The translations under genes were made by a program, and so were the position numbers. A stretch of 63,748 bases of DNA, the filler included, from Hausera hauseri (Eukaryota): the NCBI GenBank assembly GCA_046269625.1. It is 11 parts of 11 records of this genome, joined end to end, with 100 filler letters (N's around TTAATTAATTAA, not from the genome) between each part and the next. Parts side by side here need not be neighbours in the genome. Positions count along the whole stretch, not along the records: positions 29,851 to 34,072 come from JBJURY010692327.1; 10 more parts are not named here. One strand, written 5' to 3'. Shown here piece after piece: positions 5,142-55,900 of the stretch. Below the pieces are notes generated by a model. That model had not been told where the DNA came from. It ran no database searches and saw nothing but the letters and a program-made list of their open reading frames with translations. Numbering within the stretch: the first letter of the stretch is position 1; the number at the start of each line of letters is the position of its first letter.

Positions 5142-7109
5142 TTAGTCATCGAGATCAATGCTTTCTTCGGAGATTCTGCTGATTAATAGATCTTGACAGT
5201 CCGCCTTCTTTCCGATCGGGACTCGTTCTACTGGGATAAGGATTGTTTGTCCATTCTTGAGCAACAGTACATATTTTAGGTCTGCCTGTTGATGGCTCTT
5301 CTCCAATGAGTGGGCGACTTGATCTTTTATTAATTTTACTTGTAGTCTAGTATTGAGTTTAACTCCAAACTTGATGGGTAACTTCAATACTATTTGAGTG
5401 TTCATATATGGGAGAAATGAATATTTATTCTCCATCCTCTGATAAGCGAATCCGATCACTAAATTCCTCTCTGAATTCCATTTACTAATTTCAAATGACT
5501 TAATGGGTTTTTCAATATAATAAGGTCGATCCACTGTATAGACTGGCACAGGGAGATTGAGATATCCACTTTTAATGATTATACCGAAATTATAAGTGAC
5601 TTTTCTTTGATTAGTTAGCGTATACTGTATAATTTCGGACAGTTGATTAATTTCTATTGTTTCCGTTTGGGTTTGTTTATTGTACTGTAATTGAGTCTCG
5701 GTCCAATTTGATTGTTCCAAATCATCCTGATCATCTTCTGGTGCCATCAATTGCAGTATATCCTGTTGATCAATAATCTCTTCTGAAATATCTGAACCAA
5801 CTTCATCTACCACGACATTTGGCGTATTCAGTTCTCCATCTTCAGTCATCTGTTCCATGATAGGTCTATTGGTGTGGGCTTCAACATGATAGACCCAAGC
5901 GAAATCTATCAAATATTTTGTTCTATTATAAAATAGATCTCCGTGATCAATTATATTAGCCTGGAGAGTTTGCGGCATCCAGCTACCATCTTGCAAGTTC
6001 TGAATAATTTTGTAGATATCCATGGTTAACTCCCATCTTCCCATGGTATCCTGATCATAAGAGAATCCTCGGACAACCTTAGGTAATTTTAGTTCCTTGG
6101 CGACGTTAGTAATATCAATTGTATTGAAGGACTTCCCGGTTACTTCTGGATGTTTGAGTAGATCAATGACGCCAGCAAAATAATTGGTAGGGATATCTAG
6201 AAGTTGTATCATCTTTTGGGTTTCGATTCCCACCACGACGGCACCAAATAACCACTGTACTACTTCCTTGGTGACTTCATATATATCTACTCCGAGGCTT
6301 TCTAGTAATTGAAAGTTTATCCCATGTCTTCCTGAATTACAATTATGGATCTTCTGTCTGCTGACCACTAACGATCGGTATAATATGGTTTTCGCCGTAT
6401 TTGTTATTAGCACTTCCAACGGAACAGGGGAATTATCATGTAGAAATCCCACTGAGACTGTTAGGAATCGAATTGTATTTGATTGTCCAGTTTGAATAAA
6501 ATTGAGTTTGTTATCTCTGATCGCCGTAGGAGGATTTTGCACAAAGATTAGTGGTCTTGGTAAGGCTAGACTCTTTTCCGGGATGATCCACTCGATCATC
6601 ATAACAATTGGTATCCTTATTGGTCTAATTTGAATGTTATTTGTACTCATAGGAGTACTGAATGTCAGTGTTTCTTCCTCGTATAGCGTTGCCACATTAG
6701 ACATTGTAAAATATGCATTCTTTGAGGTTTTTAGCACAATTGTTCCTTTTGCGATGTGGATGGCCAATCCTTCAATAGAAAAACATTCGGAAACTACGTC
6801 ACTGATAGAAAATTGATGAGATTCGGTAATATTGATGATTTTGAGATTTCTGTTTAATGCTAAGCCATACTTCAGATGATTTGGGATTTTTGCTACTTGA
6901 AGATAGATCGACTGAGGATAGATACATGCTTGGCGTCTAATAACGTTATAAAAATTCTTCGTCATCGTGTGGGAAGAGGCCGAAGCCTTTATACTATACT
7001 GCATTAAAAGTTCCTCAATTGGTAGAATGTCGGCGTGAAACAAAGGAAAAGCGGTCGTAGATATGCTTTGGTGAGATATTTTGTTTACTTGAGGCATCTG
7101 AAAATTCAT
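5142..7109 (-). CDS. Intact intronless ~655-aa protein with a central DEDDh (ISG20/REX4-like) exonuclease-like domain lacking catalytic residues; probably a mobile-element or viral accessory gene
   Basis: 720-codon open frame; likely start MNFQMP at 7109 downstream of TATAAAA (7205-7211). Segment FLTVSVG..LEVLITN..TILYRSLV..IHNCNSGRHGIN..EVTKEVVQWLFGAVVVGIE..IQLLDI follows the spacing of the REX/ISG20 pattern; acidic stretch follows. Confidence 0.65.
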   Translation of the reverse strand: MNFQMPQVNKISHQSISTTAFPLFHADILPIEELLMQYSIKASASSHTMTKNFYNVIRRQACIYPQSIYLQVAKIPNHLKYGLALNRNLKIINITESHQFSISDVVSECFSIEGLAIHIAKGTIVLKTSKNAYFTMSNVATLYEEETLTFSTPMSTNNIQIRPIRIPIVMMIEWIIPEKSLALPRPLIFVQNPPTAIRDNKLNFIQTGQSNTIRFLTVSVGFLHDNSPVPLEVLITNTAKTILYRSLVVSRQKIHNCNSGRHGINFQLLESLGVDIYEVTKEVVQWLFGAVVVGIETQKMIQLLDIPTNYFAGVIDLLKHPEVTGKSFNTIDITNVAKELKLPKVVRGFSYDQDTMGRWELTMDIYKIIQNLQDGSWMPQTLQANIIDHGDLFYNRTKYLIDFAWVYHVEAHTNRPIMEQMTEDGELNTPNVVVDEVGSDISEEIIDQQDILQLMAPEDDQDDLEQSNWTETQLQYNKQTQTETIEINQLSEIIQYTLTNQRKVTYNFGIIIKSGYLNLPVPVYTVDRPYYIEKPIKSFEISKWNSERNLVIGFAYQRMENKYSFLPYMNTQIVLKLPIKFGVKLNTRLQVKLIKDQVAHSLEKSHQQADLKYVLLLKNGQTILIPVERVPIGKKADCQDLLISRISEESIDLDD

Positions 7110-7185
7110 TATCGATTTGATTCTGGTTCTGCGATTGAGCTGGAATTGTGGTTTAATTGCTGCACTGTTTTGCGAAAAGGGATCT

Positions 7186-7368
7186 GAATGAGAAATTTCA
7201 TGAGTTTTATAGTTATTTTGGTGTGTGTGTGTGTCTAATGACCACCACATAACGAATGAAAAGGAAAATACTGTTCCTAGTGTGCGTGGCGCGGGTGTAT
7301 GCATGAATAATTGCGATGACGTCAGCTGTGGCTGGTCACGCGATTTTATCGGGCAGTAGCACGTGCTA
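7186..7368 (-). promoter_or_regulatory. Compact Pol II promoter for the 5142-7109 gene
   Basis: TATAAAA (7205-7211, minus), Inr-like TCATTC (7186-7191), CRE TGACGTCA (7317-7324), palindromic E-box TAGCACGTGCTA (7357-7368). Confidence 0.5.
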
Positions 7369-7379
7369 GTGCTAGTAAG

Positions 7380-7479: not shown

Positions 7480-7613
7480 GTTGAGGAACTCTTCGCCTTC
7501 TCGGTCATACTTACTCTGCTGAAATAAAAATAAAGGTTAAGCCTAAGACAGATCATTGTTTTGAAACAAAACATTTTATCTGTCTGATGATAGGATAACC
7601 TGATCTGTAATTG

Positions 7614-8920
7614 TCAGGTTATGCTATCATAAAGTTTGTCGTGGTACCCTTTTCCCCGATTATCTCCATTCTGATTTTTACCGCACTTCTTACAGTTTTT
7701 GGAGACTAGAAAAATCATCGCTGTTATTATGACCAGAACGGAAATTGACACACCAATTATAGTGATTATTGGTAAACTGTTCGGTTAGGTAGAACTTTGT
7801 GTCGTGAACACATTCAGAGTGCTAGTATCTTTATATGACATCACTTCAATTTTATTACCAAGTGTTCGTACTGTAAAAGTTTTAGGGTTTTTACCCTCTG
7901 CGGTCATTCTGATTATATATTCATGTTGTGGGCGTAACGACTTACATACTGTTCCCAAACAATTTCTCTTTAGAATCACAACTTGGTTGGTGTGCTCGGT
8001 GCGACACTCAATTTTAACGTTCGTATCTAGCGTTTCTTCAGCGTAGAATAGAATTCTATCATTCTTCGTTATGATTCTGACGGGTATAATTCCTGGTATT
8101 TCGTCCGTAGTGATACTCGTAATACGGTGAGTTGTACTCGGCGCCGTGGATGGTTTTCCCGTAGTGGTCGGAATTGGGAGTTCCCATATTTCATTCTTTG
8201 GGCGATATCCTCTAAGGAAAATGCTTCGTTCACCTGGATAGGTATCGTATAAATTAAATTGTAATTGGTATCTTTGCCCTAATTGTATTATACAGCATAC
8301 TGTGGAGCGTCGCTTTCCCAACGAACAATACGCCGGTCTAGGGATAGAAGTGTTCGCTGGTGTAAGCTGGACAGAAATTTCCTTGTCTTCTGGTACTCCG
8401 AATTTGGTCCTAATCCGAATACATTGATTCTTTAAGTCCTTGTAAATTCCCACAATGTTGTCATCTAAAATTCTGTTAATCGGATCAGTGCTTCGAATTA
8501 TTTCGTCCGTTTTAGCTTGATTTGCGTCCTTCCGTTGTGGCATTCGAATTGTGAGCTCTGAAGCTATGTCGGCTTGGGCTCCAAATTTATAGGAATAAAA
8601 CAGCTGAAAGCTATATCTATAGACTTTCCCGAAATCTAAGTTACAGCATCTTCTGTGACGCCCGTATGGAAAATCACACACTCTTATATCGTCTCCAGTA
8701 GCTACGAATGTTATTTGAAATCCTATGTGGCTCTGAATAGGTTCGTCTGTTTCAAACCATGCACATGGTTTACTCCAGTCCATATCGCGTACTCTAAGTG
8801 TCTGTAAATTTTGGATATACTTTTGTTTCTCGGTTCTAGCGCTCGATTTCGCCATAGGCATGTATGAAGCAATTAATGATAAGGCTAGGACTATTTGTAC
8901 ATAAGATATTGGCCTAGTCA
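7614..8920 (-). pseudogene. Type I membrane protein fused after integrase: signal peptide, three FN3-like domains, Thr-rich linker, TM, short tail (one TAA at 7785-7787)
   Basis: After the IN GPY module and RRYNLRS: YVQIVLALSLIASYMPMAKS; repeats CCNLDFGKVYRYSF / CCIIQLGQRYQLQF / CKSLRPQHEYIIRMTAEG..FTVRT; beyond the TAA the frame reads PNSLPIITIIGVSISVLVIITAMIFLVSKNCKKC..YHDKLYDSIT*. Confidence 0.7.
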
Positions 8921-9200
8921 CAATTGATGACGTCTTCTTTTCTTTAGTTGAACGTAGATTATAGCGCCTATTCGGCCTTATTTCGGTTTTGACTACCCTT
9001 TGGACTGATGTGACTTCCTCTTTTCCATTCTTATTTATGTAAACTGTAGTCGGCGTAGTCCTTGTAACTTCGTAAGGTCCTTTCCCTGTCCTGGTAAGCT
9101 TAAGAGATGTGCCTTTTCTCGCTACCGGGTAGTGCACATAAACCCAATTTCCTGCTTCCCAATCATGCGGTTTAGCCTTTTTGTCATATTGTCCTTTAAA

Positions 9201-12200
9201 TTATTCTTGGTATTCTTTAGATAATTCTTTGGCTATTTCCCAACATTTCTGTAATCTGGACTGCAATACTTCAACGAAGTTTTGCTCTAAATCCTCCGTT
9301 CGAGCTGTATATGGGATCAATCTTAGGTCTGTGGGCAATACAGCTTCTCTACCATACGTCATAAAAAATGGCGTAAATCCTGTTGCCGGATGAGGGGTTG
9401 TATTAATGGCGAACTGTGTGCCCTCCAAAAACTCATCCCAATCCTTTTGGTCTTTCGCAACTACTGTTGACAAAACCCGTATAACGGTTGCGTTCATTCG
9501 TTCGACCATTCCGTTACATTGGGGGTGATAAGCCGTGGTAGTTAATCGTTCGATCTCAAAAATCTTGGAAATTTTCACGAACAACTTGCTCGTAAAGTTT
9601 CTTCCTCGATCTGCCAATATTTGTTCGGGCAGCCAGTATCTACAGATGATTTTCCGTACTACCGCTTCTGCTAAGGTCTCAGCCTTTTGATCCATTAATG
9701 CTATAAGTTCAACGAAGTGAGTCAGTCGGTCAATACAAGTCAGAATATATCTATTATTCTTGTGAGTCGTAGGCAACGGTCCTACAATATCCATAGACAT
9801 TGCTTGCATTGGTCTATCGGGTACGTCAATAGGCTTGAGTTCAGCCACATAATTCTTTACTTTCTTCTGTTTGGTTGCACATACTTCACAAGCATTCACC
9901 CAATTCTTTACGTCAATGTAGATGCTCGGCCAGTAGTATTTGTTTAATATTCTTTCCAACGTCTTTTCCATGACATGTGTCCGGCTAAATATGAGTCATG
10001 TTCAGCCATGAGCACTTCTGCCCTTAAGTCCTTTGGTATGACGACTAGTTTTCGTCCCTTTCGTTCGTAATATAATACGTTCTCTTGATTGGAATCTCCA
10101 GTGGTGCAGTATTTGTGGCCATATCTTCGCAAGTGCTTCCACAATTGGTGTCCTCTGGGGGTTTTATTATCGTTCACGAATTCTACGATTTGCCGTATAA
10201 CATTGTCCTTTCGCTGTTCAATAGTAATTTTTAGTGCCTTGTCTAAAGTAAGGGTTCGTTGTCTCTCTACTAAATTTTCGAGGTGAGCCCTCCTCATTAC
10301 TGTCACTGCGCTAGTTTTGGTTTTAAGTCTAGATAGTGCGTCGGCATCAACATGTTTGTTTCCAGGCTTGTATTGAAATTCGATGTTGTATCGTGAGATC
10401 TCTTCAATCCATCTGTTTAGCCTACAAGTTGGATTGTTCGCTCTACCCTTTAGAGTCGTAACTGCCTTATGATCTGTGACGATTATAATCTTTTGTCCGT
10501 AGACGTATACATTAAAATGTCTCAAGGCTTCTTTTACCGCTAATGTTTCCAGCTCTGTTACGGAGTAGTTCTTCTCAGCTTTCTTTAGTGAACGTCCTCC
10601 ATATGCAATTGGATGTTCCAGTTCTTCGTCTTCTCGCTTTTGTGCTAATTCGTATCCAATACCTTCCTTACTAGCGTCTGTTTTGATTATGAACGGTAGA
10701 TTGAAGTCAGGATATCTTAAAACATGCTCACTAGTTAGAATTTTCTTCATCTCATCAAAAGCCTTTTGTTCTACGTCGGTCCATTTCCATTTGATTCCTT
10801 TTTTCAACAAACGGTATAGTGGCGCATTTATTTTAGCGTTTTCTGGCACATAGGTGGCATAATATCCACATAATCCCAACCAATGTCTTAGTTCCTTTTG
10901 GTTCTTGGGTTCTATGCAGTCTGATATTTTACTCAATAATGACTTATCCGGTTTCGATCCTCCTTCTCCTACTATATGTCCAAGGTATGATACGGCATTT
11001 TGGGCCCATTTACACTTCTTGGGGTTCAATTTTAGTCCTGCCTGTTCCAATCTCATAAGTGTATCCTCAATATCCTTTAAATGGTCCTGTTCTGTTTTTG
11101 ATGCAATCATAAGGTCGTCCAAGTAGGCGAATGCGTGTTCCAGTCCCATCAGCATTTGGTTCATCATACGGGTAAAGATGGCTGGTCCGGTGGTTATCCC
11201 AAATAGCATAACATTAAATTCGTATATGCCGTCGTGTGTCTTAAATGCCGTTTTGTAACGGTCTTCTTCTTCTATTTCTACCTGCCAATATCCAGATTGC
11301 AAATCGAGTGTAGTAAACCATTTTGCTCCCGAAAGTCTGTCTAAAGCTTCCTTTACCGATGGTAATGGGTAAGAATCTTTCATCATCAATGTGTTTAACG
11401 CTCGGTAATCGATACAAAATCGGTGCTTACTGGTACCTTTTTTCTTAACCATTAATATCGGTGAATACCAAGATCGATAGCTCGGTCTAATTATGTCGGC
11501 CTTTAACATTCGTTCCACTTCCTTAGTTATCTCTGGTCTTAGCGAATGTGGAGGAGGATACCATTTTGGCATCTTTTGATCTTCCAAGTCTATTTCATCG
11601 TTAGATCCAGGCTTCTTCTTAAGCGGAATTGTGAGTCTTAAAGCTTTCGCTCTACCAATATCTTCTTCATCTTTTGCGATAATTGAGCTATAGCGACAAA
11701 GTAATTCGTAGAATTGGCAATACGCTTCTGGCGAAAATTTTGTTTCAACGTGGGACGGAAATTCGGCACCCCTATACGGCTTTTCTTCAATAGTAATTGA
11801 CGAAACTCTATGCGTATGTCCCAAAGTGGTATTGGCGTAAAGTTTGATCGCAGTAGGTGCGTTATTCGCTATCCTAATGGGTACACGGCCGGTTGATACT
11901 CTCGTTAAGACGTTGCTGAGTGTAAGATTTGGGTTAAGCGATTCCTTCGGCTCGAAATATACTGGTTGATCGTCGTCTTGCCGTATTTGAGCGTATATTA
12001 ATAATTCAGTTCTAGGTGGTATGTTTTCGTCTACCGGAATCCATACCTCTCCTAATTTCCTATCTTTGGTGGTTTTAACTCCTTTTATTGGGCCTAGTTC
12101 TATCAGTTTGCCTGCATTGAAATCTATCGCTATATTGGGCAATTGTCTTAATAAGTCGCATCCTATTACTACGTCATCCGTCAATTGTTCCATTACGGAA

Positions 12201-12553
12201 AATTCGTGATGAAAAGATTGTCCCATTATGTGAACTTCTGGTTTCCAACGAAATTTGCTTTTTGATGATTGCCCGAAAGCTCCAATACTACCTGGATCAG
12301 TCGTGGGAGGTGGATACAGTTGTTTCCGTAAGAACTGTGGTATTGAATCGTACTTTATCAGCGATATCTCTGATCCTGTATCGATTAGCGCATAAACTTC
12401 CCAGTCTTCCAGCTGAATTTTTGCGAAGGGTCTTCCTTCGATTACTGTACCATAATAATTCGGTGCTTTACGAGGTTGTCGGACCATGGATACCTTATAA
12501 CCGTTTATAGTGACTTCTGTACTTCCGACCGGCTGGTCTACTAATTGTCTCAA
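9201..12553 (-). pseudogene. pol: Pol: aspartic protease, RT, RNase H, integrase (Ty3/Gypsy order)
   Basis: ALIDTGSEIS; RFCIDYRALN; LDLQSGYWQV; YLDD; KTDAS..IAYGGR..NYSVTELE; HDSYLAGH..CEVC; MDIVGP..DRG..GMVERMN. Confidence 0.97.
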
Positions 12554-12871
12554 TTTCCCGATTAGATAGAGTTCGTTATCTGTACTAGTCGCATTTTCTA
12601 CTCCTTGGCCTCTAACTGGGGGCTGAATATTCGAGTTCTTGAGATTTCGTGTCTTACTGCGTCGCGTAAATATCGATTGTATTTCGTTTGGCTTGGGTAT
12701 TCTAGGCGAATAGATTATACCGTGGTCGTCAACCGCTGGTCAACGATACAGAGCGGATGTTCTTTCCGTTCCGTGGATCTTACGCAATATTCCGTATCGT
12801 TTTGTTCCTTCGTATGGATCCTCTAGATTAATTGGCTGTCGATAGAGGTCTGTCTGACACGAACTCAGAGA

Positions 12872-14884
12872 TTATTTCTCACAATCTTCATATATCGTTG
12901 CCGTCGGCGGCAATACCGGTAATGGTAATTTCATAACGGAGTAATTTTTATGTCGGCCTATTCTGGAGGTGGGGTCTCCTCCCTTATGCTCGTCATCGTC
13001 CGAATTATTTCTTCGCATTTTACTTTCTATGAATTTTTGCCTGTAATTAAATATGCGTCTTTTACGCTTTCGATTGTGATAACCCACATGTCGCTCTACC
13101 TCTGTTTTCCATTTACTTTCTTCATAAGCCCTCAAAAAATTACCAAAAGGAGTGATAATGGCTGTTAGGATTTTGCATGAGAATCCCGTTAAGGTAAATA
13201 TCTCGTACCCATTTATAATCGCTTGGATTATCGCTTTTATCAATTGAATCAAGAAGTATATCGCTAGAAATCCTGACGCGGCTTGTCCGAATATAAGGAA
13301 TCTTTCCCAAATCTTGTATAATATTTCTGTGGTTACCTTTTTGTAATAGACAACACCTAGCAACGACTCCCATTTCGCTTGATATCGTGAATCTTCCAAT
13401 ATTGTGTGCATTGCTCTGTTCAATTCGTGCGTTTGCTGACGAGGAAAAGCAAGAAATTGTCTGAACGCCTCTACTTCTTTCGGTCGATAAATACCTTTTT
13501 CGGCTGTGTCCTGAAATTTATCATCAGTTATTCCTTTTACTAAGTTTGTGCCTGTCAACTTGATGGGTGGTGCAATAATACCACCGTTTGGCAAACTCAC
13601 CCAATCGGTTCCGCTTCGCCTAAACATCGGCTTTCCTAAGCTGGTTTTACAATCTTTCAAAACCGTTGGTTGAGTGGCATTCGTCAACAGAACTCTAGTA
13701 ATTGGCGTTGCCAATCTCGGTATATCCTGATATATCACTGGAAGCTCTTGTATACATCTCTTCTCTTCCACATTAATCGGTACGTCTTTCTTCTCGCACT
13801 CATACGTCAATAGCACTTCTCCGGTTACTCGTCCGAAAACACCTTCCTTCATCGGAATTATCAGTGACGCCAGCTCTGGATTGGCATAGATTAGAGCTAA
13901 TTTAGTTCTCATAATTTCCAAGTCTAATTTACAATCGTTTGTTACCATTTTGTGGTATAACTCGGCTATTCCGGCTTGTCCTTTATAGTAAAAGTAGTCA
14001 TCTCTATTCTTCAGATAATCCTCGATTCGGATATCTTGAGTCTCAAGTTTAAATATTCGGGCATTTATTTCAGTCTTAGCTACAAAAAAAGCTTCGTAAT
14101 TAGTAGCATACATTACGACGTCGCGTCGAGTGAGCATAGCCTTCTTCACAAACTTTAATCCATGGGCATCAGAAATTAATATGGTGGAGGTGGACTGTTC
14201 AGCTACATCTTCGCGTGTTTTAGAATTAGTCTCTATATTAGTTATGTACCGTTTTCCAGTCGTTTCGTTGAATTTGAGTTCTTTAATCCCAATGAAATTA
14301 CAATCGGTTTTAGCTGGTGGTTCCCAAATTACCACTGAGCTCCGAAATGGACAAGTGCCGTCCTAGATGTGACATTTGTGGTTCTCGGTGTAGAACTTGG
14401 TGACACTGTGGAACATTACTTTCTGTATGCGCATTTCGGTTTCGTAAAAATCCACTACTACAATGTTTTGCTTTAATCCCTTTCCCGTATCGTATTCTAT
14501 GCCTTGACAATGTCCGGCGTGCATATCCAGTCGTCCTGCTGCAACCTTATATACTCTAATTATTTTCCCTTGTTGCATCTCCAATTCCATCCCATACCAG
14601 TTTATTCTTCCAGTTTCTCTGGCCTGTTTGCACTTCTGACGCTCTAAATAAATCGGAATCGGCGGGGTGGTTGGTTTGATTATTGACGAGTGTCCGTGTA
14701 TCAATCCACAGTGAAAAATACTGCGAGATCGTCTTAACATACATTCTACTCCATCTAGCGCGATTAATTCCCGTTGTTGGTATAATATGTAATCCTTTTC
14801 CTTTGTCTCCAGCTTGTGCGGTCTCGCATCTTCGCACATTTCCAAGTCCATTAGGGAGTACTTCTGGCCAAGTCTAAATCTGTC
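12872..14884 (-). pseudogene. env: Chuvirus-like (class III/gB-related) envelope glycoprotein, one internal TAG at 14363-14365
   Basis: Cys pattern C..LYQQ..VEC..IFHCG..H..C..G..AGR..GHCQG..C..DGTC..VIWE..C; LYHKMVTNDC; FGRVTGEVLLTYEC..C..ELPV; C-terminal hydrophobic WERFLIFGQAASGFLAIYFLIQLIKAII. Confidence 0.85.
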
Positions 14885-28779: not shown

Positions 28780-29750
28780 TTTTCATTTGTAAAGTACACA
28801 TTCTGATATATCAATTATGACATTCTGCATTAATTCTTCCATTTCTTTTAAAACGTTTGGCTTCCCGAACCCCAAGAAGGGCCGTGTCGTATTTACATAA
28901 CATTACACATCAAATACAGAACAAATTAAATATACAATATACATTTATATAACCAACATGCTTATATACATATACACATTTTATACATTCTCTACATCTT
29001 ATGTCCCCTAGATCTCTTGATGTGAACTGGATTGGCCAACTAAATTGGTTCAAACATTCCCCACTTCTTGGGGTAGTCCGGTCTATAGACATGTCTTCAT
29101 AACTAATCACAGTTCTTAAGTCTTTCCATTCATTTAATTCTTTTTCTATTTTACAAACTTTGTTGATGGGTCGCCGATAGATTTCACCATTTTGTGAAAT
29201 CTCAACAACTCGCACGATCCCATCTTGACCATGAAATATATTGATTATCTCAGCTACTGGCCAATGATTCCTTTTTTCTGCTGTTTCTAATACCCATACT
29301 CTATCTCCTGGATTAATATCAACTTTCCCACTGCCATTGTTTTTGTCCTCCAAGTTATCAATAGCTCCTTCCTCCATCTCTTCCAATATTCATCATTTAT
29401 TAACTGAACATACCTCCATCGTGCGGTTACGCTGCTTTTCGTTGTACCTATTAATTCCGAATCAATATCGATGTTGTGACCAGCTATAATGAAATGATTG
29501 GGTGTGAGAACAATATCGTCTTTACTGTCAGCTGACGGTACCGTGAGTGGTCTATTATTTATGATTCATTCAATTTCACACAAAATGGTTTATAGTACTT
29601 CATCGGTAACCTGAGCATCTGCTAGTATCTTATTCAATGCTCTTTTAACCGACTTTATTAATGCCTCATAAGCTCCACCGAAGTGTGGTGCACCTGGAGG
29701 GTTTAATATCCACCGAATATTGTTTTGCTCCAGATTCAATTTCGCTGAAT
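28780..29750 (-). mobile_element. BEL/Pao LTR retrotransposon 3' end (integrase C-terminus, PPT, 3' LTR)
   Basis: NPPGAPHFGGAYEALIKSVK; INNRPLT; GDRVWV..RNHWPVAEI..GQDGIVRVV..RRPINKVC; polypurine AAGAAGTGGGGAA then TGTTTG starting at 29056; left boundary approximate. Confidence 0.9.
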
Positions 29751-30341
29751 NNNNNNNNNNNNNNNNNNNNNNNNNNNNNNNNNNNNNNNNNNNNTTAATT
29801 AATTAANNNNNNNNNNNNNNNNNNNNNNNNNNNNNNNNNNNNNNNNNNNNCCTTGATGAATTTCTTCTTGTTTCAACTTAATCACTGCCGCATAAACTGT
29901 CATTTTCGATTTAAATGCTGATAAACTATCTGGTTCAGACATGTTTTTCACAAGTGACACTTACACAGGGGTGTTTATATAAACTTTGCGAAATTTAGAC
30001 AAATTGGGGGTGGAAAAAGTGAAACCCAACAGCGGCCAGAATGTACTAGGGGGTTGGATTAGTGAAACCCAACAGCGGACATATAATGTACTGAATATTT
30101 AATATTGAATATTGATTTCCGATCTTGGGGGTTGGCCGCGTGTCGTCACATCCCTATACTCAGGAACATCGAAACAAAGTAAAATAGGTATACCAAAGGT
30201 AACATTAACAACTTATGAACTTCTAGAACAATTAATTAAGAAAGCTAATCCAAATCAACTCAAGAAGATACGAACAATTACAACAATTCCATTAAAGTCC
30301 ATAATATAACCGCTAGAAATTCCATATCGCAAATTACAAAA

Positions 30342-30590
30342 TTGCTGCAGAATTACAAACTGCACGGAGGCCTAAATAAAGCATTGAAGCTATTATTAAA
30401 GGAATGTGATCAAAATCGACTACAGATGGCATTGAGATGCATAGTGTTCAGCTTTAAAAATCAAACAGAGGTTGATGCCAAGTTACACCATATGGTAAGG
30501 GACTTAGCCCATTACATGAATAAACTAACGAAAGATTGGGTAACCAAACAAGGAGGTTGGGATGACATGCTCAAGAAATTTAACCATACA
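30342..30590 (+). pseudogene. Bcl-2-family-like domain (clear BH2, degenerate BH1)
   Basis: ..LAHYMNKLTKDWVTKQGGWDDMLKKF fits the BH2 W-x3-GGW motif with its preceding helix; in frame with the glycoprotein signal peptide. Confidence 0.65.
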
Positions 30591-30619
30591 ACACTAATGT
30601 ACCCCAGAGATACCAATGT

Positions 30620-32425
30620 CTCAGATTGGGTTGTACAAATTATTTATCTGCTACTATACTTGATAACCGTGAGCAGTTTAAAAACCACGAAAGCGTTAGA
30701 AGCCCATGATTGTTCCAAACTGGAAATAACAACCAGACTTTCACTGGTAGATATAGGTAAATATCAAAACGCTAATCCAATATCAGTAAAGAAAGAAGGT
30801 CCTTACAACTATAACTTGTATCAAAGAATCAGCTATCAACAAGTGCAGGTAAAGGAATGTGAGCTTACAACTGTAGCCATAATTCGTGGAATTCAGTAAT
30901 TATTCCACTCGGACTACCTAAATCCGTGAAAATAATGGCTGAAAATTGCAGAAAAGCCATGGATTCAATTAATGTAGGCCTTCAACAGCCAGTACAAGCA
31001 GGCATAGAAAACGAGTATATTCACGCATAGTTACAGCCGGTAAAATATAGATTGGATACGGTGGAGCTTGTAAAGGAGAAAGTATGATGATAAATGGACA
31101 AAAGAAATTCGCTGTGGTGCAAATAGAAGATTATACTGTCACTATAAAAGAATATAAAGCAAATTTCAATGCAATCGCAGGAAAAATGTTAACCGCACCA
31201 TCCTGTACATATTCCGATGGAGTACCCTAGGAGAATCCAACCTAGTTTGGGAAAAAGTACCTATGTATGAAATACAAGATTATTTATATTATAATGACGA
31301 GTACCAAGAACCTATACATAACCATAATATAAGTCTACCTAGTCCAGGAACCTTGAAACAGACCACTTTCCTAAAATTTTTAATGTCATCCAGTGACAAA
31401 GATGACATCGTACTGGCATGTAAAGGAGCAGTATCTACTTGTGGATCAAATGCAGTTTACTCTACAAGCTATGAAGACCTATTCGTAACAAACATAACAG
31501 GAAATACAGGATAGTTGCTAGCCAAAGATACAAAGTGGTATCTATATACAAATAACAAGATAGACTATATCTATACCGAAAAAATGGATTTGGTCGAATT
31601 ATATAATATGATGGTTTTGGGAGATTGTAAAATCAATCAAACATTGAAGCAACATAACTTAATACTAGCCAGAAAATTCCCAGAACATATTGCCATAATT
31701 ATGGGATATCGCCCTGGAACATTTCGTAGAGTACAAGGTGAAATACTCCACGTGTATCAATGCCCTCCAATAGAGGTAATTCCAATAACAACCACAAGAG
31801 AAAATTGTACAAACGAATTAATGGTCCAAAACAACGATAAAAATATAAATAAAACAGGATATGTTCGCCCTGTTACCCTACCGAAATTAGCTTTGCACCG
31901 TGTTACAAAGACTTCTATCCAGCCTTCAAACTTAGTGACGGAATATGGCCCAAAACACGCCAACCATCTATGATGAACATACCACAGACGATTGGACTAC
32001 TACCATTGGATAAAGGCATGAAATTTAAAGTAAATAAAGAACTCCCCAGCAGCGGATTATATTCATTAACAGACCTGGAAGCAGTAAGAAAACATGTATT
32101 GTTTCAGAATATCCGAGAGAACATCATCACAGAATTTGTATATGCTGTTACAAAAGTATCAGATGGTGTACCTAATTATGGAATGTTACTGCCAATCGAT
32201 CATTTAGCAAGAACAGCTAAAAAGGCCCTTTATGACTTTTGGAATAAACTGCTTATTTTTGGTCAAGTTATATCTGGAGTTTTGGGATATACGTTATAAT
32301 CACAACCATAATAGTCATTAAGACAAATAGGAGCTGCAAGAAATATAAAGAAAGCACGTGGTTCTACATGGCAAATAATGTTAGGATGTTTCCCTTCTAT
32401 GGCGCAATCAGTATTGATGTATTGA
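30620..32425 (+). pseudogene. env: Chuvirus-like envelope glycoprotein (multiple frameshifts)
   Basis: Colinear motifs with 12872-14884 in several frames. Confidence 0.85.
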
Positions 32426-32812
32426 CATACAACGAAACTTGACAAATTAAGAAAAGAACTTCATCTAACTCCAGAACTAGTACAACAGTTACAAGCCTTT
32501 ATTAAATTAACAGTGGAAGAATACCTGGTTAAATATATATTATTGAGAAAAAAAGCTGGACAACACTTCAAACCAAAAGCACCAACATACTACAAACCCA
32601 AACCTATTGATGAATTTCCGGAGTATCCCGAATACGAAGAAATGAAGGTCACATCAATGCATGATCTTCCTATGGCAAGAGATCTAGATGAATACACCTG
32701 TTTACCAAGTACTAAGCACCCACCGAACGTATTCCGACAATATAATACCACATATACTGGACGGAATAATACAAAATTTATTTTTATAACCCAAACCACT
32801 GCTACAACAGGA

Positions 32813-34072
32813 AACAATCCCTATGTCCATGTACGATTTAATGGATTAAATATTATAGCACTACTAGATACCGGAGCATCCGTATCAATGATTCGACATT
32901 CTTACTTAACTGACGATCAAAAAGGAGCAATCATGCCCAGAAATATAGTAATAGCAGCAGCGAATTCCACTCAAGTGCAATTCCCAGGAAAAATAGACGT
33001 CAAAATAAGAATCGACGGTAACCTAAACACTATCACCTTGTTTGTGGTTGATGACAAAATATTGCCAGTGCCTCTAGTCATAGGAATGGATGTATTGTCT
33101 CAAATTTCAGGTCTCTCTATGGACTTATCCACAAAGACACTTAAGTATACTCTAACCAATTTGTCAATCGAGGATATTAGTATGACGTTAACTCATGATG
33201 TTATTATAAGCCCACAACAACAAGTAATGGTGGTGTTAATAATACCGCCACAATACCACAAGCAATATAGCATTTTTGAGCCAAACCTATATAATAACGA
33301 AAAATATAAGATTTCACAATATCCCTTATTTGTACCAAAAGGAGTACAACGTTTAGAATTGCCAATACAAAGCATCAATAAAAAGGCAATCAAATTACGA
33401 CAAAACCTCAATTTAGGACAATTACAACGAGTTAAGGTATGCGCAGCAACATTTCTGGTGGCAGATGAAAACATTGAATTCAAGGACGGCAATTTAAATC
33501 AATACCAACAGAAAATTATTACAGTTATTCCATAAATATCGAGATATTATAGCTGTGAATGATAATGACTTCGACAGAACCAACGTTATTCAACATCATA
33601 TAATCATCATATAATCCGTATAGAATGGGTGAAGTTGACAAATGGTTGAACATGGTATTATTAGACATAGTTTCTCTCTATGGACATCCCCAGTAGTATT
33701 AGTGCAGAAGAAGGACGGAGCACAACGATTATGTGTAGACTTCAGAGCAGTAAATAATGTTACAAAGAAGGATAATTACCCATTACCAAAGATAGACGAA
33801 ATGCTCACAGCCTTAAGAAATGCCTCAATATTCACCACTCTAGATTTGCAACGCGGATTTTGGCAAGTCAAAGTTGCCGAAGAAGATAAGCAGAAAACAG
33901 CCTTCTCTACAGGAACTGGATTATGGGAATTTAACGCTATGCCCTTTGGCTTCACAGGAGGATTTGCCACATTTCAAAGATGTATGAATTTAGTTTTGCA
34001 ACGAGTAACCTGTTGTATTGTGTACATAAATGATGTAGTAATATTTTCTGAAAATTTTGAACAACATCTAGA
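32813..34072 (+). pseudogene. pol: Pol (protease and RT N-terminal part)
   Basis: NPYVHVRFNG..ALLDTGASVSMI..LVIGMD; SLWTSPVVLVQKKDGAQRLCVDFR; LDLQRGFWQV. Confidence 0.95.
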
Positions 34073-34317: not shown

Positions 34318-35860
34318 ATGTCTGTACCATCTTCGCATTTGTTATCGAGACCAGAGCGTAATTAGCAAGTAATTTAATTATTTATTTATTATTAATTTAT
34401 ACATTGTAAAGGGATATCGGAACAATTTTACGATTGGAAACGCAGTGAATGGGCAGTATGTCAGAATGTTCCCCGATGTTTCAGATGATCATTGCAGAGC
34501 ATTGCAGTACAGGTTTCCTGATCAAATCAGTGAACTTATTGTGCCGCCGGAAGGGGCAACATTTCGCCATTTCATGGCGATAATTAAGTATGACGATTCT
34601 GTTGATTTAGTTGTAAATATGTCAAATTATATACGCCTTTCTTTATTGTACAAATTTTATATGAAGGTGGTGGAAGATACATCTTCTACCGGTTTCCACC
34701 ACCTTCACTTCCTTTTTTATTTACGCAACCCTATGCGGTTGCATAGGTTTAGAGTTGTATTTGGGTTTAATTATGTTATCCCTTTTAGGAGTGATATCTT
34801 TGCCGTGTACAAATATCATCAAAAAGATATCACTCCTATTGTGTTTACCCTTCAGATCGGTAATCCCCCAATAGATATAAATAAAGAGAATACCTCGCGC
34901 AAAGCTTTGTATAGAATGTTCGATGATGCTCCCTCGGTCTCAGAGGCTATGCATATCATGAAGGAAGGAGACCGAGCGGAGTTCGTTACGCGACACAAGA
35001 TGTTGCAGTCATATGTCAATAGTAAGTTTAGGCCCAAGGTGTCTGTAAATAATTCCTTTGTTTTTACTATTCCCCCTATAAAATTTGATGTTGAGCGTGG
35101 GGTTAATACGGCTTTGTTGTTTGGATCATCCAATATAGGGAAGACCTGTTATGCCATGAGTCATGGCAAGAACCCACTTATTCTTCATAGTCTCCATGAC
35201 ACTCCTGCTGAGTGGTCATCGGAGTACGATTTGATAATCTTTGACGATGTCGGGTTTGGGGAAATGTTCCCGGACATCTTCTTATCTATTGTCCAATGCA
35301 ACCACGTACATGACAATCGGTCTATACGTGGGTTGTATAAGTCTGTTGTAGTTCCTAGTTCGGTTCGAGTTATCTTTACGTACAATAGTCAGTCCTCCTT
35401 TTGGCCTCGAAAGATGGACTTAAGTCAGAAGGAGGCTTGTTTGAAACGATGTCTCCTGTACGATTTAGGAGATTTTATGCTGTATTGTACAGGGGAAAAT
35501 AGGTATCGTTTTATTCAGGAGAATCGGGTTGACTTCCGTAGGTTAGCTGAGGAGTTTAGTGAGCCTCCCGCTATACCTGTTGTTATTAATCGGGGGCATT
35601 ATCGATCTGATTCTGTTTTATCAACTCCAGAATATGTACCCAATGATTTAGTTGTAAATATGTCAAATGTAAATAATTATCGTCAAACTTATCATCGTGA
35701 TGTTTTATCGCCTTTTCATATGTGTACAGAGGCGTGCTATGTAAATCCCGTTGATTTTATGAATACAGGTAATGACCCTACTGGTGTGCGTACTGCTCCT
35801 AGTATGGGTGAAAACAGTTTGAATTTGACTTGGGGTGTTGACAACCATATCACATTCTGA
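34318..35860 (+). CDS. rep: Endogenous CRESS-DNA-virus-like Rep (HUH endonuclease plus SF3 helicase); probable 5' exon 34318-34368 and 43-nt intron 34369-34411
   Basis: Motif II GFHHLHFL, motif III YKYHQKD, Walker A GSSNIGKT, Walker B IIFDDV, motif C IFTYN, Arg finger ACLKR. Phase-0 GT..AG intron joins ATG 34318 to the Rep frame, but the 5' exon has a TAG at 34363-34365. Confidence 0.9.
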
Positions 35861-40030: not shown

Positions 40031-41149
40031 TTGTGGTGCCGCGGACTAGGGCGCCACCATGGTCTAAATTGCAAATGTTATCAGAAACAAAAAATCCACA
40101 ACGATTCACCAGTTTCATTTGACGAAAGTTGTCGCTATAACAATCCGTCCGCAACGAAACTCACTCAATCTCGATAGTTATGCTTTTTTACTGATCTCAC
40201 AACTTTTGTCAATTAGATGTTCAAACTAATTCATACCAAACACAAAACAATATTCCAAATATGCAGGTCAGTATACTTTTTGTGGGGAAACATAACATCA
40301 TGTAATTGTGGACAAATGAAATTAATCAACCGTACCATCTTTGTTGTACAAATAACCAATCAAACTCCGTCAGTTTAATACATGTAAGAATGATAATAAA
40401 ATATAAAACCAGTCACTCTTTAAGTCTCAAACAATTAGCCTTCGCTGCAGGAGAAAAATTATAAGCAAGTAATTTCAGACAAAATGCAATCCATCCATCT
40501 AGCTGTGTGAATATGAATAAAACAGAAAAAAAAGAAATCATTTCAACACTGCGAAGAAATGTTGGCATATGATGTGTTTGAGACGTACACATTGTGGCAT
40601 TGTAATGTACGATGCAGGAACCAGTTATTATGTGAAACATAATAAAAATTTCTGTCGACTTGATTACGCTAAAATCGGGATTGTGTTGACTATGCAATAC
40701 GCTCAACATGAATTTCGAAATCAGATATTTGGTTAAAAATTACATTTTTCATTGACGTTATTCAAATCTATTTGTTGATAGTTTTAAGTATTGTTGCTTG
40801 ATAGTGTTTCTTGTTAATGAAATTATGATCAATAAAAAATTAATAATTGAAATTTGAAAATAAACATTACCTACGGGTCTTATCGTTGTTGTTTTGGAAT
40901 TAATCTTTTCTCAATTGATAATTGATATAAAATTGGTGTCAGAAACATCAAAGAAACTTTATTTTCGATTGCCTCATTTTTCTATCATGAATGCCGTTGG
41001 ATTATTATTTTCAAAAAATGAATATGATCATTTATCCTCTATCCTGTTGCTAACGTCAATAATGGAATATAAAACACACACAGAAGTTTATGTCAGTCTT
41101 CAATCGGATAAAAGGAACCACAATGAAGGAACTGTTGCTGGTAGCGGTA

Positions 41150-41476
41150 CAGTTCGTCGAAAACGACGAGCAAGTTCAATGTTTAATGTTTCTCAAAAGC
41201 GAGAATTGAAAAAGTTACCGTTATTAAAAGACACTCCGCCAGCAGAAAAAGAATTATTTCTGAAAAAGATTGATCAATGTTCTGTTGTGTTTGTTTTTGC
41301 CATAGATAAGTTAAGTGATTTGAAGGACAAAGAAATAAAACGATCGGCATTAAATGAATTGATTGAATATATAAATTGCAATAAAGGAATTCTAACGGTA
41401 AATCTCTATCTGGAAATTGTTAAAATTCTTGCTGTAAATTTATTTCGAACTCTTCCGCCGTCGAGTAATCCAACTG
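41150..41476 (+). pseudogene. PPP2R5: PP2A B56 (B') regulatory subunit N-terminal fragment
   Basis: SSMFNVSQKRELKKLPLLKDTPPAEKELFLKKIDQCSVVFVF..LSDLKDKEIKRSALNELIEYI..AVNLFRTLPPSSNPT, truncated after this point. Confidence 0.9.
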
Positions 41477-41489
41477 CTGCCCTTTGCCG

Positions 41490-42100
41490 TGCTACGGATG
41501 ATGCATATTATTACGACTACGAGGATTATTTTAAAGCAATTATTGAAGATTTCCATCAGATTACTAATCCTGATATACTCCATCCGACAGCCGAACTTAC
41601 CCAGAATTTGGAAAACAGTAAAACCGCTGCAGCTAACATTAAAAAACGTCTGCAAAACAAAACCCCAATTGGAATAAAAAATCAAATGATTAAAGCATTT
41701 GCTATTGATGATACTGGAATTATTTCCCAAAATATGTTTGATGCTCAAAGCATGAAGATGAAGAAAATGATATTCAGTCTGTGTTTGTTTAACGTGGCGA
41801 TCCTAGAGACAAAAAATATGGTTGTCTAGGGTTTAGTCTTCCGTATGACTTCAACGACACGGATTTTGAGATATCTATCAAACAACTTCCTAGTTTGATG
41901 CATCATGCAGCTAATATTTCAGTGATGCCGTTAGAGATGACATGAATAGATATAAAAAATACAACAATGCTGAAAATACTATTCAAAGCTTCCTTGACTC
42001 ACCCTTCCAAAGCATTCTGGAACAAGAGGTCAATAACTGTAATAAAATGCTCATTCGTATTCATCGAGGCATCAAATTGGAACAAGTACTTTTGGAGCAA
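41490..42100 (+). pseudogene. Scrambled dynein heavy chain C-terminal fragments
   Basis: NPDILHPTAEL; KKMIFSLCLF..LE.KKYGCLGFSLPYDFNDTDFEISIKQL across a frameshift; PFQSILEQEVNNCNKML. Confidence 0.65.
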
Positions 42101-42296
42101 GGTGACAACGTTGGTAGATTTTTTGAAATAAGTAATAATCAAAAATTTGGCCTAACACAATTTCAAGCTATGAAAGAAATATATGATAATATTTCAGGCC
42201 TGTTAACTATTGAAAATAAATGCACATGAGGAGGTTCTTCTATAGATGAAACAGTAGACACTCATTATTCGACGTTTGTGAGTCGTACATCTGGAA

Positions 42297-43283
42297 ATGT
42301 GCAAATTACGAATTACTCTGTTATTTATTGCTCTACGAAATGTGGACGTCGAATTTTTTAAATATCTTATTAATTGTGGAGCAAACGTTTTCTCAACTAT
42401 TGCAGCAAAGCGAAGAAATTTAGACTTAATAAAATTGCTGATTCAACACGGTATCGACCCAAAAGATTCATCTAGTCGCACGGCCCTAAGTTACTGTTTC
42501 ACAAATTGTTTCCGTCCTGGAATTGATTTATTTCTGAATAATATCGCTTGTAAATACACAGTTTCCAATTTTCAACGTCCTGCTTGCATTTCTAATGCCG
42601 TGCTAAAACGCCTGCATATTAATATCGAAAATTGTGAAGCCAGCATCCCGTATTTTGCTTTGGCTCTCCAATATGGTTCGGAAGAGGATGTTTTAACTCT
42701 CGTGCATTATGGTGCAAATTCGAATTCCGCATTTATCCATAATGGTGTAACAGTAACACCCACGTTTTTAACTTTGGAAAATGATTCTTATTCAAATCTG
42801 TGCAATTTGGTCAAATATGGTTACAATCTTAATTTTATCAGTCTACCAATTCAAGAAACATTATTGCATGCAGCTGTTCGGCTAAGAAAAACAAAATTCG
42901 CTCACGAACTGTTATTCTCCGACGTAAATGTTGATATTCGATGTCGGTTAGGTAAAGACGAGCAATATTTACCAATTCATGTAGGTGCTCAGAACGGTTT
43001 AATTGCAATTATAGAGACATTGATTTTGTTTGGAAACAGTGTTAATTCAATGATTACATTGAAAATGGTAGAGCGTTTCAGCCAATTGCATCATGCAACT
43101 TTAAATGATCTTACATCCATTGTTAAATTTCTTACTAAACAAACTTCAGCTAGCGTCGGAAATAATCCCGAAAGCAAAATTGGAAAACTTTATTACAATT
43201 ACAGAAAATTTGCTGTTAGTCACTCCGTTCTTATATTGAACGACCAAAGAACAAGTGTTGGCGGAGTTAAAAAAGGTCAGTGA
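42297..43283 (+). pseudogene. Ankyrin-repeat protein (partial or degenerate)
   Basis: TLLFIAL..KYLINCGANV; LIKLLIQHGIDP; TLLHAAVR..VNVDI; LPIHVGAQNG..LILFG. Confidence 0.8.
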
Positions 43284-52959: not shown

Positions 52960-55900
52960 CTTGTCATCGTTGAATGACAAAGCAACCTTTTTATTTGTGA
53001 TGGTATACAGCTGGTGCTAAATCGATCGTATGGTCGTTTGAGACACAACATCCTTTCCTCCTTCTCTATTTTTTCCGTCTTCTTGTCAATCACGGCGGTA
53101 ATAACAGTGAATTATTTCTGTCTGTTTCAGCTGGATGCCGTTTGCCCGCATTTTCGGCCCACAGTCCGTCAGCAAACTGTAATACTTTGGGCGCAAAAAT
53201 ATCCATTACCTGTATTGAACCGGGCCTTCTCTTTCGTCCTTGAAGCAGCCGATTTTGTTTGTTATCGCGCTGCTGTACAGTGGATGGTCCGAAGGGTAGT
53301 TGAACGTGTCCAGTAGTCCATCTGACATCATTTATCGGAGCAGCTGGTCTCGATTAATGTTTTTCAGTTCAAGGAAGAAGCTGCCTGTGTCACCGGCAAC
53401 GATACTAATCTCACAGCTGCCGCCGCCGCCGACAATTTGCCGGTAACGTGCCAAGTCGCGATATTGGAGCTCGTACATTCGCAACTTGCTCAGATCCAAT
53501 ACCACTTGTTCGATGTAGCTCGGCCGGTCCAGTACGACTTCCTCCTGGTTTAGAAGCACGGAGACCAATCCATCGGCATTGTGCATTGACCGCCTGAACT
53601 GAGCTTTGATGGTTATGTAACCAGTCGTTTTTCGTTGTTGCACAGGCGCACATTGAGCCGCTTCTTCAGATTTTCCACTGTTTTCCCGTCCAGTGAATTG
53701 TTCTTGAGCTTGTAATAGTTCTTTTCAAACTTTGCACAAGCTGCATCTTGTTTCCAGAATTTCCATCGGCGCCTGATTGAAGCGAATTTCACGATGCAGC
53801 TGTGTGACGCGTACACCGAGCTGCATGTAAAACTGCAGTAGATGCCAATGAACCACGTAATTCGATTTGGGTTCATGCGTCATGAGTAGTTTCTTTACTT
53901 TTGAGCCGCCGGGTGGACATTGGCTAATTGGTGCGACCGGCAGTTCATCCAGAAAGTCATACAGCTCATCCAGTACCACGAGATCAACTTCCATTAGGTA
54001 GCCGACTGAGCTGCTTTCTGTAGTGTTTGCTGAACAGACTGTCCAGCAATGTCCAGTTCTTGTTTGTCCATTATCCATTCAAACAAACCGTACGGCGAGG
54101 GTTGCGAAAGCGCCCAGCCGTACAGGTTATTAATATCAACGTACAATATTGACGTTGTATCATCGCTGGTTACGTGATGCTTGTTGACAAATGTCATGCC
54201 GCCTCGAATACCAACGTCAAACAGTCGATACATTTGCAGGTCTTGTAGCAACTCAATGTCCCGATCCAGTGACATTAGTGCCGATGCCCAACTCATTCCC
54301 GGTATTGAGTAAAAGTTGAACGGTTCCAACCTATCTTCCTACAAAGCTTTAACCCGAAATGTCTAAAACACCGGCTAATAGGCACACATCGATCTTTAGA
54401 TACTGAAGCATGTAGTCCAACATGTTTCTACAACCGAGCTCTGTCCAAGATTCCTGTGGTCTTTGATATTCATCTTCTGTGATAACTGTCCATCGCAGCG
54501 GTAATTCCTCTCTTGTTCGGAGTCGCTTATATAACACGGCAAAGTCATACGGGAATATGCCTTTGCTGCGTGCAATATGTGTGGGGAACTGCGTTAGTGT
54601 TAGCAGCATATCCGACAAGGCATTTACGAGCTTTTCTAGAGACTCAATGAAAAACTGCAATGAGTCAAGAAACTGTATCTGAAACCGGTTTATGCGTGCC
54701 GATAGGGACAGGTACTTCTCCATCGTTGTTGGGTTTGTGGATAGCTCCCTGTGCGGAAATCCATTTATGGCCCATTTCAGAATATGATGACAGTCATAAC
54801 TCCTGAAGTGATCCGGTACTAGCCGCTCTGGGAATATTTTGTGGTGGCACAGGTAACATTCATCGGTGGCTACAAACGTCAGGCGTTCATTTTCATCCGT
54901 CCAAATCAGGGGTTTTGTGCTGTTATTGCGATAAGATGGTGCGATTTCCTTTTCTACTATCGTTTCCAAACACTGCAGGAAATCATGCGCACAGGTCCAG
55001 CCGTGAAAGGCGTAATACTGCGGCTGACCGACCGCTATTATTGGGACAGTCAACATATCAACGGCGATTGGAACGTGTTTTTGATCATACACGTTGTGTT
55101 GTAGTAGAATTGCCTCAATATCGGCATATACTACATATGCCGGACTGTCTGTTTTTAACCAATCCGTAAACCTGAGTTACTTTTTGACGGGAATGACATA
55201 CATGTTTCTACCGTGATATTTTCGACCTGAATCCATGCAGACATACAGGACACCATTTACAATTTATACGCTTTTTGATGAGTAGATGGTGATACATGAT
55301 AAGTAGTCTGTGCAAGTTTCTTAGTGCCACGTAATTAAATTTATCTGCTTGCTCCAGTAACAATAAATTTACTACTGAGTGACCACTTGGGTTCCAACTT
55401 CAATAGAGTATATCTACATGAGGGTTTTTGTAAATTTCGTCATGCGCCGGTATTTCTACGACTGTGTTGTACCGAACACGTTGATTGTCAGTGTCGGATT
55501 ATGTCGTTAGAAAGCCGGAATGGATTTCCGTTTTATCGGAATCCAGCTTTCATCGAAATCCAATTCAGAAAAATATTTCTCATACCGTTTTGGAGTAGAT
55601 GCTCTATGTCTGTCCACTTCGTCATATTTCAATACCGCCAGAATACTGTAAAGAAAACAGCATTTATCGTTAGTATTTTTTACATTCACTAGCGCCAGAG
55701 ACTGCTTCAGAGCTGCAGGTGTCAGTATGAATGATCGTCCAGACAAATATATCACATCACACGACTTTGTTAGGATAAAGCCGAGAGTGACATTTAGTAT
55801 AATTCGCCATCCACTACCCTTTTCGATGTAGTTGACGATTTTCTCCTCGAACTTTTAGCCTAAGTCGTCAACAAAATCTTCAGAATACGGTACGGCTCGA

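Follow-up and report, generated by a model that had tools for sequence, protein, structure and literature searches.

Does a Gypsy-type element of Hausera hauseri carry a Bcl-2 domain directly ahead of its envelope signal peptide and, if so, what could such a domain do there? The question is raised by one of the 11 contigs that, joined by N/TTAATTAATTAA spacers, make up the 63,748-nucleotide stretch analyzed here (the window). On this contig (29851-34072), Pfam and comparison with a related protein gave the following order, all on the plus strand: a Bcl-2-like region, a hydrophobic segment or signal peptide, a PF24664 envelope protein (env), a protease (PR) and a reverse transcriptase (RT). The related protein, P0001 (1963 aa), has the Bcl-2-like domain and env unbroken in a single ORF and is 67% identical over 201 residues. 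The features of the contig are:

30184..30306 (+): Bcl-2-like domain, N-terminal part, in a separate frame; 76% identity (31 of 41 residues) with P0001 1191-1231
30307..30311 (+): frame change within the Bcl-2-like domain, a lesion of the window copy, from the tblastn frames against P0001
30312..30581 (+): Bcl-2-like core, predicted helices 2-8; 61 of 90 residues identical to P0001 (68%)
30402-30422 (+): BH1 position, ECDQNRL opposite GVNWGRI of Bcl-xL in the alignment
30534-30581 (+): BH2-like motif DWVTKQGGWDDMLKKF, read from the sequence; G-W in all 9 rows of alignment A2 that cover the site
30627..30695 (+): internal env signal peptide, candidate tail anchor of the Bcl-2-like domain, from hydropathy and the (-3,-1) rule
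30696..32422 (+): env, a Monjiviricetes-type fusion glycoprotein with a C-terminal membrane segment; PF24664 in two pieces, E 4e-15 and 8e-14
32426..33535 (+): spacer, retroviral-type aspartic protease (RVP, E 7e-8) and a post-protease domain at the dUTPase-like position
33639..34064 (+): reverse transcriptase, truncated by the contig end; RVT_1, E 5e-21

The sequence-only reading had placed a Bcl-2-like domain at 30150-30720, ahead of the env signal peptide. The order holds, but comparison with P0001 moves the start to near 30184, in another frame: the divergent domain is encoded by 30184-30590 (+) and is split by one frame change near 30306. No credible match to P0001 was found in 30150-30183 or in the remaining upstream part of the contig (best E 0.41). 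In the low-confidence model of the P0001 counterpart, the segment ahead of the frame change corresponds to predicted helix 1, a loop and the start of helix 2. The BH2-like motif, the hydrophobic core of the signal peptide (30627-30674) and the AHDC sequence (30702) all lie within one stop-to-stop ORF of 216 aa (30249-30899), as had been proposed; because of the frame change at 30306-30312, the first ~20 residues of this ORF are out-of-frame text.

The search with the Bcl-2 Pfam profile, suggested earlier as a check, had a mixed outcome. The window ORF alone scored below the curated cut-off of PF00452 (14.5 bits, E 0.055, against 31.4 bits), and this cut-off was reached by no sequence, the best relative scoring 23.6 bits. 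Searched whole, P0001 lacked a Pfam Bcl-2 match even at E 1. Among PDB sequences, the best match of the window ORF was a designed protein (E 0.02), followed by BOK, A1, Mcl-1 and Bcl-xL (E 0.04-0.45), while one relative (P0027) gave no PDB match by itself at E 0.1. The family profile, on the other hand, was informative. That built from alignment A2 matched Bcl-xL over helices 4-8, BH1 to BH2 included, with an E value of 2.3e-5, and the 60 matches listed of 99 were all Bcl-xL or Bcl-2 chains. A search of 1176 sequences with a profile of seven distant rows, restricted to the Bcl-2-like columns, recovered P0001 at E 1.1e-5 and the window ORF at 3.7e-5, the next-best other window frame scoring only 0.27. 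These data suggest that the domain is very probably a true Bcl-2 homologue. Judged by identity to P0001, it is also conserved like env (76% and 68% for its two parts, 80% for the signal peptide, 53-67% for env).

Structure predictions were of low confidence, both for the Bcl-2 segment of P0001 (pLDDT 46) and for the window core without helix 1 (pLDDT 60), with a helix order that fits a Bcl-2 bundle. Foldseek gave no match at E 0.001 with either low-confidence model; among the 38 matches listed for that of the window core, 36 were Bcl-2-family proteins, at E 1.1-7.2, TM up to 0.38 and an rmsd near 10. VIA-align, run with the same two low-confidence models, had no Bcl-2 entry among the 50 matches listed (best Z 7.1 and 5.2), and the ESM Atlas returned a single unnamed match at 0.76 for the Bcl-2 segment.

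What remains of the Bcl-2 homology motifs? The BH2 pattern (W-x4/5-GW) is present in the window and seven relatives; P0003 has Tyr for the first Trp. A form of it, W[ILVM]xxx[GQ]GW, picked after the motif had been seen, occurs once in the six frames of the window, compared to 0.007 times per mononucleotide shuffle (150 shuffles). BH1 had been reported as unrecognizable, but alignment gives its place: ECDQNRL at 30402-30422 stands opposite GVNWGRI, so that NWGR becomes DQNR, with the arginine kept and the tryptophan and glycine replaced. This motif reading leaves aside alignments A3 and A4, where the BH1 region of the window is misplaced. In the seven sequences that cover the site, the glycine position is occupied by N, N, S, D, T, N and S (Gly in 0/7) and the arginine position by R, R, R, K, K, K and K (basic in 7/7). 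According to the accessible part of PMC7719400, NWGR is pivotal for BH3 recognition and ORFV125 of orf virus retains its Gly and Arg; G138A Bcl-xL is described as inactive in the accessible part of PMC12285600. Since the BH1 glycine is missing in all seven, a canonical anti-apoptotic activity is doubtful, as is, on the aligned residues, canonical BH3-groove binding by the domain.

To place the locus among its relatives, we turn to a profile search of 1.84 billion representatives, which gave 27 matches, 21 of which were scanned with Pfam. A sub-threshold Pfam Bcl-2 match lay directly before env in five of these (E 7.7e-5 in P0027, 9.6e-4 in P0003, 2.1e-3 in P0016, 0.012 in P0020 and 0.055 in P0005). 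Another, P0004, gave no Pfam Bcl-2 match but has the BH2-like motif, followed by env and PR in a single ORF, and the ORF of P0005 runs from a zinc knuckle through a ubiquitin-like domain (E 0.031) and the Bcl-2-like domain to env. P0001 has a weak ubiquitin-like lead of its own (Atlas 0.83 to PF11976; local profile E 3.4e-4). Altogether, P0001 and six distant relatives retain the layout of Bcl-2-like domain, signal peptide and env; the distant ones are only 20-29% identical to the P0001 segment, with the domain in frame at the same place.

Neither Pfam nor the BH2 pattern gave a sign of Bcl-2 in six matches that have long upstream sequence (P0007, P0011, P0014, P0019, P0021 and P0022). P0014 encodes gag-env-PR-RT-RH-IN in one 2146-aa ORF, which shows that env between gag and pol is not limited to giant elements. 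Both P0014 and P0022 are compact, with env in frame behind gag and neither Bcl-2 nor a ubiquitin-like domain (Ubl) seen. Tandem aspartic-protease domains were observed behind env in P0019 (four Pfam stretches) and P0004 (three blastp matches). In a quick env tree of 16 rows, made without six rows under 150 aa and without P0027, the Bcl-2 label changed three times, no fewer than in shuffles (230/500). Word-indexed protein searches yielded one match among 493 candidates, none among 2462 and two already known among 2418. No related loci were found in viral contigs, and a single weak 28-residue match in metagenome contigs (L001) was set aside.

The hydrophobic segment behind the domain almost certainly works as a signal peptide. 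A signal-peptidase cut is predicted after 30695, and in 23 of 26 sequences the (-3,-1) positions that fall two residues ahead of xYDC hold small residues, the misses being P0004, P0016 and P0028, a cluster mate of P0016. At seven other offsets the rule held in only 0-9 of 26, and the composition background is 0.12. Two membrane segments flank the env ectodomain; in P0001, the strong hydrophobic segments are those at 1337 and 1911. In all eight sequences with the BH2 pattern, 23-43 residues separate BH2 from the hydrophobic core; in cellular Bcl-2 proteins the tail follows BH2 at roughly the same distance. The signal peptide is found with or without an upstream Bcl-2 domain, and its presence in the six relatives without Bcl-2 indicates that it did not originate as a Bcl-2 anchor and that the domain is dispensable. 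Whether the peptide, once cleaved, stays on the domain is a separate matter. Retention of internal signal sequences as anchors is a standard solution in HCV and pestivirus polyproteins, according to the accessible part of PMC8310223, and by analogy we lean slightly towards the peptide being kept as an anchor here. The linker, variable in length and sequence, could be open to cleavage by the element's own protease.

The window copy itself cannot express such a module, because it is broken inside the Bcl-2-like domain. Its frame changes lie near 30306, 30870, 31007, 31215 and 31877 and its stops at 31048, 31512, 32297-32312, 32423 and 33533, so that env, 53-67% identical to that of P0001, is interrupted by several of both. 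Env nevertheless has a Pfam score above cut-off, a signal peptide and a C-terminal membrane segment, all that is expected of a Monjiviricetes-type fusion glycoprotein. Its C-terminus shares a frame with 32426..33535, the post-protease part of which is domain-sized and has no Pfam match. The RT is 52% identical to that of P0014. Gag and LTRs are absent from the contig.

A public sequencing run, X1, contains a fraction of 0.40 of the sampled words; it is possibly related to the window's own source and does not count as independent support. In X1, 13,272 contigs map to the sequence examined (at least 80%), covering all 30 bins and mostly less than 95% alike; their number and divergence indicate that the element family is multi-copy. 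The frame change at 30307..30311 is not common to all X1 contigs. By its sequence, then, the element is a decayed, multi-copy Gypsy with the gene order of Burro, a planarian element to which we return below.

One candidate explanation of the in-frame stop at 32423-32425 was programmed read-through between env and pol, the lead being that P0001 terminates at the same codon. X1 reads a sense codon there (36 contigs, 777 of 844 in depth); we therefore discarded read-through, since members of the family normally run from env into pol without a break in frame. The end of P0001 coincides with this stop, though most X1 copies lack it. At the other end of the contig (29851-30150), a repeat of 17 bases lies at about 30019 and again at about 30062, contigs loop back by 45-61 bases and depth is very high over 29851-29991, which suggests that another repeat adjoins the element.

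Other contigs of the window contain loci that we note for completeness. A second env-PR-RT-RH-IN element lies at 7480-14884 (-), its env 26% identical to that of P0001. Behind its integrase, frame 9200-7785 (-) has a hydrophobic segment, a cysteine-rich region, one stop and a second hydrophobic segment, with no informative Pfam match; it is possibly a second surface protein. A 744-aa open frame at 5142-7376 (-) runs off its contig and has no Pfam match. At 34373-35860 (+), a 495-aa ORF with a P-loop-like GSSNIGKT and no Pfam match at E 1 resembles Rep proteins of small circular DNA viruses or plasmids. Pfam recognized four further pieces, on separate contigs of what looks like an animal-like, repeat-rich assembly:

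28913-29389: DUF5641
40864-41829: PP2A B56 fragment
42282-43283: ankyrin repeats
54352-55176: protein-primed-type DNA polymerase B piece

What might the Bcl-2-like domain do in an intact copy? We propose that the polyprotein of a working element, Gag-(Ubl)-Bcl-2-env-PR-RT, would thread the membrane twice, at the signal peptide and at the env anchor; Gag, Ubl and Bcl-2 would consequently be cytosolic, the env ectodomain luminal and Pol cytosolic again. Signal peptidase would cut on the luminal side, freeing env, while the signal peptide would stay behind and keep the Bcl-2-like domain at the endoplasmic reticulum (ER), facing the cytosol. The anchor would be lost if the element's protease or signal peptide peptidase cut the domain loose. 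With one polyprotein as the source, the three parts would be expressed one to one. So anchored, the domain would likely dampen cell death or stress signalling of the host, though not through the BH1 groove of textbook Bcl-2 proteins. For this scheme as a whole, an element of Burro order whose signal peptide leaves the domain ER-anchored and cytosolic, likely damping cell death or stress by a non-BH1-groove route, we consider the case evenly balanced. Its broader component, that the domain affects cell death or stress signalling in some way, canonical or not, appears probable.

The most obvious alternative is a conventional anti-apoptotic Bcl-2 of the viral type, with a groove that binds host BAX/BAK or BH3-only proteins. 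The basic residue kept at the BH1 arginine position in all seven sequences and the retained G-W of BH2 fit this idea, as do the BIR domains also present in Burro (PMC6431247). In the accessible parts of PMC7719400 and PMC11209288, moreover, poxviral proteins with altered or unrecognizable BH motifs still bind BH3 peptides, and the latter includes an anti-apoptotic poxviral protein without recognizable BH motifs. However, the BH1 Trp-Gly is replaced in 7/7, and the predicted anchor is an ER-type signal peptide rather than a mitochondrial tail; we regard a conventional function as possible, though unlikely. The loss of the groove motif in a domain that is conserved as well as env, and that sits in a fixed position beside the signal peptide, could also mean that the Bcl-2 fold now serves a structural or adaptor purpose, for instance as a membrane-proximal, matrix-like spacer separating Gag from env or by binding immune signalling proteins, with no role in apoptosis. 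Poxvirus proteins with a Bcl-2 fold and non-apoptotic roles are known. Yet BH2 is retained, and the absence of the domain from related elements speaks against an essential structural role, making this explanation improbable.

Lastly, the domain might be a captured host fragment drifting without function, or the BH2 likeness a coincidence, as had been raised at the outset. Every single-sequence score is indeed sub-threshold, but the domain keeps its frame and position even where identity to the P0001 segment is only 20-29%, the profile match to Bcl-xL covers BH1 to BH2 and conservation equals that of env, all of which makes drift or coincidence very unlikely. Returning to the ER-anchored module, its most far-reaching form would be an enveloped Gypsy clade in which signal peptidase yields a tail-anchored Bcl-2. 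A single helix would translocate env and tether Gag-Ubl-Bcl-2 to the ER, tying a death modulator one to one to particle assembly, and the loss of the BH1 glycine would mark a new, non-canonical Bcl-2 mode, possibly beyond planarian hosts. We consider this wider picture speculative and rather unlikely as a whole. Should the domain prove active and the signal peptide serve as its anchor, a reverse-transcribing element would here encode a Bcl-2 regulator within its polyprotein; all viral Bcl-2 proteins covered in the accessible part of PMC11209288 come from dsDNA viruses.

The closest known system is Burro/GYPSM1 of Schmidtea mediterranea and Dugesia tigrina, whose single ORF encodes a Ubi2/SUMO-like domain, a BCL2-like domain, an env that matches fusion glycoproteins of mononegaviruses, PR, a dUTPase-like domain and RT (PMC6431247). 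The sequence-only reading had pointed, correctly, to a Bcl-2-family domain in this planarian Gypsy and had suggested kinship; the order BCL2-like, env, PR and RT is indeed common to both, and by gene order the element is Burro-like. Cargo and order were thus already published, and the present locus adds one decayed member. A possible role in apoptosis was called worth testing in PMC6431247, section 7 of which makes no mention of BH motifs, a signal peptide or topology; Grohme et al. 2018 may already contain Burro sequences or describe the BH motifs or signal peptide. The detail added here, namely the domain limits, the BH1 replacement in all seven, the signal-peptidase site and the natural sister elements that either have or lack the domain, makes the question of whether Burro-type elements meddle with apoptosis testable.

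The comparison with Burro was made by its published description. The two share a BCL2-like domain directly before a mononegavirus-like env, then PR and RT in one direction, and many decayed copies. The ubiquitin/SUMO-like domain that precedes BCL2 in Burro has weak counterparts in the relatives P0005 and P0001 and is absent from the window contig. A single ORF of Burro runs from gag through env into pol, whereas the window copy is broken and without gag; its env C-terminus and PR are nonetheless in one frame, with the stop between them a minority state in X1, and P0005 and P0004 keep partial orders in single ORFs. Where Burro has a dUTPase-like domain, between PR and RT, the contig has a domain-sized spacer without a Pfam match. 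Burro exceeds 30 kb, with LTRs, an ORF of about 4,900-5,100 aa and MATH, BIR and ankyrin domains, while the present element is known from a 4.2-kb contig, and P0005 accommodates everything from Gag to env in about 800 residues.

With Bcl-xL and Bcl-2 the domain shares profile homology over helices 4-8, the BH2 G-W, the basic residue of BH1 and a hydrophobic segment soon after BH2. It differs in having DQNR for NWGR, in lying inside a polyprotein and in being followed by a cleavable signal peptide and a glycoprotein in place of the Bcl-2 C-terminal tail. For HCV and pestiviruses, where translocation of the first envelope protein relies on an internal signal sequence that may stay as an anchor of the protein upstream (accessible part of PMC8310223), the parallel is an analogy of topology only. 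The Bcl-2 proteins of dsDNA viruses (KsBcl-2, ORFV125, F1L, SPPV14 and DPV022), as far as the accessible parts of PMC11209288 and PMC7719400 describe them, are likewise virus-borne, with divergent BH motifs and a membrane segment behind the domain; those are stand-alone genes of DNA viruses, whereas the domain described here is part of the polyprotein of a reverse-transcribing element.
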